Assembly (NCBI RefSeq): GCF_017348835.2
Contig: NZ_CP071375.1
From: Escherichia coli
Lineage (GTDB): Bacteria; Pseudomonadota; Gammaproteobacteria; Enterobacterales; Enterobacteriaceae
DNA: 64,000 bases
Strand: one strand, 5' to 3'
The notes beneath the pieces are model-generated. The model was given only the letters and a program-made list of their open reading frames with translations, was not told the origin of the DNA and ran no database searches. The position numbers and the translations under genes are program-made. This document shows positions 26,413 through 26,512 of the stretch, in pieces. Position 1 is the first letter of the stretch; every line of letters starts with the position of its first letter.

Positions 26413-26512
26413 GCCTGATGCGCTACGCTTATCAGGCCTACGCTACCTGTGCAATCCATTGATTTTGCACAATTTTGTAGGCTGGATAAGGCGTTCACGC
26501 CGCATCCGGCAT
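26413..26512. repeat. REP/BIME extragenic palindromic repeats between convergent cueO and gcd
   Basis: gcctgatgcgctacgcttatcaggcctac and gtaggctggataaggcgttcacgccgcatccggca, typical E. coli REP units in inverted orientation. Confidence 0.8.

Follow-up and report, generated by a model that had tools for sequence, protein, structure and literature searches.

The repeat between the convergent cueO and gcd genes of Escherichia coli is very probably a single complete BIME-1

In the window analysed here, a stretch of 64,000 nucleotides from Escherichia coli, the convergent genes cueO and gcd are separated by an intergenic gap of 201 bp, and the locus raises the question of what kind of repeat occupies that gap, how it came to be there and what it may do for the two genes. 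The initial annotation had described two inverted REP-like units in the gap. Both strings have been found between the two genes together with their inverted arms, and the identification as REP/BIME has been upheld and sharpened: the cueO-gcd repeat is very probably a single complete BIME-1 (RIB, RIP) with its flanks, lying in the shared 3' region of cueO and gcd. BIME-1 elements have been on record since the early 1990s. The cueO-gcd copy occurs in K-12 and the element type is already known; the RefSeq record of MG1655 has no repeat annotation in the cueO-gcd gap. Positions 26300-26600 match strain L73 with 100% identity and K-12 MG1655 with 99.3%, a higher value than those of the window's cueO (97.5%) and gcd (97.9%) against K-12. 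In 200-bp bins against K-12, substitution density around the element does not differ significantly, and sliding divergence between the two sequences shows nothing unusual near it. The features of the locus are as follows:

24758-26347, + strand: cueO, from the annotation of matching genomes.
26367-26388, no strand assigned: perfect hairpin with a 9-bp stem, ATGCCCGGA-TCTC-TCCGGGCAT, locus-specific and outside the repeat.
26389-26411, + strand: left flank motif TAAACTGATGACAAACGCAAATC, common to paralogous BIME-1 copies and a partial inverted repeat with the right flank.
26412-26441, - strand: z1-type REP (palindromic unit) TGCCTGATGCGCTACGCTTATCAGGCCTAC, 0 edits from the paralog-derived consensus.
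26431-26441, + strand: natural IS621 target ATCAGGCCTAC, with the CT core at 26438-26439 and insertion after 26439.
26442-26476, no strand assigned: L linker of 35 nt with an internal GTGCAA/TTGCAC palindrome, aligning to the linkers of paralogs.
26452-26464, - strand: IHF core consensus WATCAANNNNTTR (AATCAATGGATTG on the - strand), an exact match to YAANNNNTTGATW within the linker.
26477-26511, + strand: y-type REP (palindromic unit) GTAGGCTGGATAAGGCGTTCACGCCGCATCCGGCA, GTAG-first, 1 substitution from the consensus.
26512-26541, + strand: right flank motif TGAACAACGCGCACGTTGTCAGCAATCTGA, common to paralogs in the alignment.
26549-28957, - strand: gcd, with the C-terminal end YALPDDVK and the stop codon at 26549-26551.

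The order along the gap is left flank, z1 REP, L linker with the IHF site, inverted y REP and right flank. Because both flanks belong to the repeated unit, the element extends over about 26389-26541, which is wider than the 26413-26512 first drawn. Within the left flank, CTGATGACAAACGCAAAAC is conserved at srmB-yfiE and ridA-mgtA in the alignment, while GCAAGTC (26542-26548) lies between the right flank and the gcd stop codon. The two units had been said to fill most of the gap; the REPs and their linker cover 100 of its 201 bp, and the description becomes accurate only when the flanks are counted in. The inverted arms of the REPs, as located by a repeat finder, pair 26428-26441 with 26477-26490 and 26412-26422 with 26501-26511, with CTAC at 26438-26441 and GTAG at 26477-26480, and in the predicted fold the REP stems are broken by unpaired bases. 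The z1 REP, which reads GTAG-first on the - strand (GTAGGCCTGATAAGCGTAGCGCATCAGGCA), is invariant in orthologs and paralogs, and its predicted fold is an imperfect hairpin interrupted by a 2-nt internal bulge. In the y REP, the single substitution (GGCTGG in the window, GGCCGG in the consensus) is a C-to-T change which weakens the stem on the - strand, the z of the fold being only -1.2. The exact IHF core match in the linker is accompanied by an A/T-rich stretch upstream of it on the - strand; such a match is not rare by itself, the window containing 6 where 2.1 are expected.

A 301-bp query around the element matched a median of at least 38 places per E. coli genome, which makes the sequence a member of a high-copy family. 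BLAST with the 43-nt linker alone found 1-5 places per genome, a figure which is no measure of BIME-1 copy number because short divergent copies miss the E-value limit in a 28-Gb database. Paralogous BIME-1 copies at srmB-yfiE, ridA-mgtA and mdoH-yceK were retrieved via IS621-junction queries, and z1, L, y and both flanks are conserved when the orthologs are aligned with these three paralogs. The consensus of z1, y and L was derived from the paralogous copies. For the family as a whole it gives CTGATGACAAACGCAAAAC in the left flank, TGCCTGATGCGCTACGCTTATCAGGCCTAC in z1, a linker ending in TGCAATnTATTGAATTTGCAnnATTTT, GTAGGCCGGATAAGGCGTTCACGCCGCATCCGGCA in y and TGAACAAAGCGCACTTTGTCnGCAATCTGA in the right flank. 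Compared with the REP consensus, z1 is identical and y is one base off, so that a lack of similarity to REPs can be dismissed, and an independent curated model agrees, the first hairpin of Rfam naRNA4 aligning to the y unit. The REP tail CTTATCMGGCCTAC, allowing up to 2 mismatches, was found 4 times in the 64 kb where 0.41 occurrences are expected, 2 of them in the z1 and y units, with 0 mismatches in one and 1 in the other. The matches at 5999-6012 and 34932-34945 were rejected as chance occurrences, having neither palindromic REP structure nor a full match to the REP consensus. Elsewhere in the 64 kb, a limit of 7 edits yielded no further REP, and at the same limit z2-type units were not matched anywhere in the window.

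BIME-1 has been defined as z1 with y in a single copy, with a long and well-conserved L linker in which an IHF site is frequent, and BIME-2 as z2 with y, with a short linker and in tandem copies (PMC3333891); the same definitions are given by PMC2817692, which refers to Boccard & Prentki 1993 on the binding of RIBs by IHF. In the cueO-gcd gap, one z1 and one y REP stand inverted to each other as imperfect palindromes with the GTAG foot and a stem mismatch, on either side of a long conserved L linker containing the IHF consensus. They form the only REP pair in the gap, a single copy rather than a tandem array. Their position, bounded by the cueO and gcd stop codons, is extragenic and at the 3' end of both transcription units, and their family is highly repeated. 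At the level of sequence, every feature that defines a BIME-1 is present and those of a BIME-2 are missing. A BIME-2 or atypical BIME, in which a tandem REP cluster would form a strong DNA gyrase site, has the y REP in its favour, as gyrase cleaves BIME-2 preferentially at this unit (PMC6379681). It is nevertheless extremely unlikely here, since the partner is the 30-nt z1 and not z2, the linker is of the long L type and not S, and a single REP pair without a tandem array does not answer to the definition of BIME-2 (PMC3333891).

The hairpin at 26367-26388, which precedes the BIME-1, had been described in the initial annotation as terminator-like. As a hairpin it is real, with its perfect 9-bp stem and a DNA fold of -10.7 kcal/mol (z -6.9), but it is followed by no T-run or U-tract on either strand and no terminator was called, a scan of 26200-26700 on both strands having returned 0 terminator-like sites. 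It is present in all alleles of the locus, short ones included. In Salmonella enterica subsp. arizonae, a homologous hairpin (ATGCCCGGC-ATGC-GCCGGGCAT) is followed by TAATGG and the gcd stop codon, and the one base pair by which it differs from that of the window is compensatory. The hairpin is at best a weak terminator or 3'-end stabiliser, older than the BIME. It is also unlikely that the hairpins in this gap mainly serve cueO and gcd as an intrinsic terminator working in both directions. Such a function would suit the position of the element between convergent genes and the strong predicted RNA structure of the gap, which folds far better than shuffled sequence on both strands (z -6.4 and -5.8), as well as the retention of the upstream hairpin in Salmonella with its compensatory pair. 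However, T-runs are lacking behind every stem in 26200-26700, whichever strand is read, in keeping with the empty scan, and the REPs are missing altogether from about 45% of genomes. The conserved upstream hairpin is a better candidate than the BIME for a weak terminator or a stabiliser of RNA 3' ends.

Two further readings would give the region a product of its own. Matches to two Rfam models, ES036 on the - strand at 26434-26476 (34.6 bits) and naRNA4 at 26480-26516 (34.8 bits), could be taken to point to a small RNA gene in the region, of ES036/CssrF or naRNA4/CssrE type. This is very unlikely, as both scores lie under the gathering scores of the models (37.6 and 59.5, respectively), no promoter-like site was found in 26200-26700, and the matches cover only the repeat linker and one REP hairpin, which points to sequence shared among BIMEs. 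The 43-nt consensus of ES036 corresponds to the BIME-1 linker and GTAGGCCU, while naRNA4 aligns only through its first hairpin (the y REP), with 44 model positions skipped. A literature search on ES036/CssrF returned unrelated papers only. As for the 71-codon ORF at 26396-26611 on the + strand, which appears in the mechanical ORF list, the chance that it is a real gene with the palindromes as coding sequence is practically negligible: it crosses a high-copy repeat and then enters the conserved gcd 3' end in antisense orientation, its segment is missing from about 45% of genomes, and it carries no annotation in K-12 or in the other RefSeq records examined.

The BIME-1 at this locus is polymorphic. 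A check of strain-to-strain variation in REP copy number had been proposed, and it has been carried out as a census of 5,426 complete E. coli genomes with junction-specific queries, in which the locus was found to hold two REPs or none, in the following alleles:

Filled allele, 2,736 of 5,426: at least 80% of 26300-26600 present; in a minority, e.g. E06, the linker is a shorter variant.
Short allele, 2,371 of 5,426: hairpin, TATGG and gcd stop codon, in a gap of 46 bp with no REP.
IS621-disrupted allele, 199 of 5,426: insertion in the z1 REP.
Partial-deletion allele, 95 of 5,426: 124 bp gone (left flank, z1, L and y), right flank kept.

Together the four alleles cover 5,401 of the 5,426 genomes, with 25 falling outside them. 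The right flank is missing from the short allele, and the filled and short alleles are related by a replacement (about 157 bp against TATGG) rather than by a clean insertion, so that the insertion mechanism is unreadable from the junctions. In the partial-deletion allele, carried by CFT073, Nissle 1917, ATCC 25922 and MS15046 among others, the missing 124 bp are bounded exactly by two direct repeats, GGCAT(GAA), of which one belongs to the hairpin arm and the other stands where the y REP ends. This short direct repeat is formed in the window by TCCGGGCAT of the hairpin arm (26384-26388) and TCCGGCAT at the end of the y REP (26508-26512); it reads GGCAT in the window and GGCATGAA in the E06 allele (L003 380-395). 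Two linker variants are found at cueO-gcd, that of E06 (L005 438-470) being distinguished from that of the window (26442-26476) by a 7-nt indel and several substitutions, with REPs and flanks nearly identical. The perfect IHF core is lacking in the linker of the E06 and E. albertii type, which has TTGAAT and not TTGATT. The existence of two variants suggests that BIME-1 copies have undergone gene conversion or arrived separately.

REPs had been put forward as hotspots for insertion, and this has been borne out at cueO-gcd itself, where IS621 is inserted in the z1 REP of 199 genomes. The sequence ATCAGGCCTAC is a natural target of IS621 within REP elements (PMC11208160), and the landing point in the z1 REP, after ATCAGGCCT and before AC, matches the known target exactly. 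In E7476, the junctions (...CTTATCAGGCCT/TGTATT...AGTATCT/ACGCTAG) place the insertion at the CT core of ATCAGGCCTAC. The insert is 1,279 bp long including one duplicated CT, and it sits precisely at the z1 site in all 199 genomes, a count which was obtained with a junction query including unique cueO sequence. A 78-nt query across the IS621 junction had returned 1,139 genomes and was set aside as an overcount, since other BIME-1 loci share the left flank and z1 and were matched as well. The cueO-gcd BIME-1 is in this respect a natural landing site of a bridge-RNA recombinase.

Comparison beyond E. coli bears on the age of the element. A BIME-1 at the same position and with the same flanks is found in E. 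albertii, whose cueO is 91% identical to that of the window, and in a second divergent Escherichia lineage (L044, 92-93%), while a third (L109, 94-95%) carries the short allele. As the short layout is common to Salmonella, it is probably ancestral, with the BIME-1 probably an old arrival. Within E. coli, about 54% have the filled allele, as do E. albertii and the second non-coli lineage of Escherichia, and about 44% have the empty one, as does the third lineage. It has been considered whether presence and absence of the element form an old cross-species polymorphism of which selection may keep both states through the formation or stability of cueO and gcd 3' ends; this is distinctly improbable, with recombination among lineages and recurrent gain as the neutral alternatives. 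Among enterobacterial genomes with convergent cueO and gcd, 11 of 27 gaps hold genus-specific REP types, and the gap looks as if it had been colonised repeatedly. Citrobacter, Enterobacter and Salmonella have REP types of their own there, and the 219-bp gap of Kosakonia cowanii (L080) contains a BIME-1-like pair composed of a z1-like TGCCTGATGGCGCTGCGCTTATCAGGCCTGG, a linker and GTAGGCCGGATAAGGCG.

Rearrangement has also been observed at the locus. In E. albertii NBRC 107761 (L013), BLAST detected only 216 bp of gcd in a 6.9-kb locus; this remnant corresponds to bases 124-339 from the 3' end of the gene, the 3' end itself being deleted. The deletion ends within the BIME-1's right flank (...GCACGTTGTC/TGGCCCCC), and the locus is a rearrangement with its breakpoint in the repeat. 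At srmB-yfiE (L006 1780-1850 and 3200-3290) and ridA-mgtA (L007 1775-1810 and 3215-3260), a GC-rich hairpin stands on both sides of the BIME-1. These flanking hairpins are locus-specific, as a direct duplication of about 25 bp, and the left copy is without a T-run whereas the right copy has one. Duplication of this kind could be the signature of BIME-1 insertion next to terminators; no duplicated flanking hairpin was seen at cueO-gcd.

With regard to function and mobility, the element may be regarded as non-autonomous mobile DNA which would have arrived at a place where only a hairpin adjoined the gcd stop codon. The REP-associated Y1 transposase (TnpA-REP, RAYT) probably acted on it in single-stranded form. 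This enzyme recognises GTAG and the stem mismatch (PMC3333891), and its sequence prerequisites (a 5' GTAG, a stem mismatch and an inverted partner REP) are found in the window copy, a putative substrate. An IHF site is frequent in the linkers of BIME-1 (PMC3333891), and IHF would be expected to bind and bend the linker DNA. In cueO or gcd transcripts reading into the element, the REP stem-loops would impede 3'-5' exonucleases, and such stem-loops in RNA may favour Rho-dependent termination. From what is known at the level of the family, we infer that the cueO-gcd BIME-1 may stabilise upstream mRNA, as the initial annotation had proposed for REPs. Any effect on cueO or gcd is probably small and dispensable, because about 45% of strains are without the element.

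The cueO-gcd BIME-1 is a well-characterised polymorphic marker with four discrete alleles, and the natural occurrence of filled and empty alleles suits a test of the effect of a BIME-1 on two convergent genes. The additions made to what was known are modest: a census of four alleles, the precise occupancy of the site by IS621, and evidence for an ancestral empty layout.

Among known systems, nothing essential separates the repeat from BIME-1, also known as RIB (reiterative ihf BIME) or RIP (repetitive IHF-binding palindromic element): the GTAG/CTAC feet of both REPs point toward an L linker of about 35 nt, and the window copy is set apart by one stem substitution in its y unit. Its linker is 7 nt longer than that of the E06 allele at the same locus and 8 nt longer than that of E. 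albertii. With BIME-2 and atypical BIMEs, the gyrase-binding arrays such as REP325, the source of naRNA4, it has the y REP in common, the first hairpin of naRNA4 aligning at 26480-26511, and it differs from BIME-2 in its z1 unit, its L linker and its lack of tandem reiteration. IS621, a bridge-RNA-guided recombinase of the IS110 family, is absent from the window, whose REP represents the target only. The inverted REP doublet has been regarded as the unit of non-autonomous mobility (PMC2817692), and the REPINs (REP doublets) of Pseudomonas, mobilised by RAYT, likewise consist of two inverted REPs and a spacer. They belong to another REP sequence family and another host, whereas the BIME-1 of E. 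coli possesses a linker with an IHF site and conserved outer flanks.
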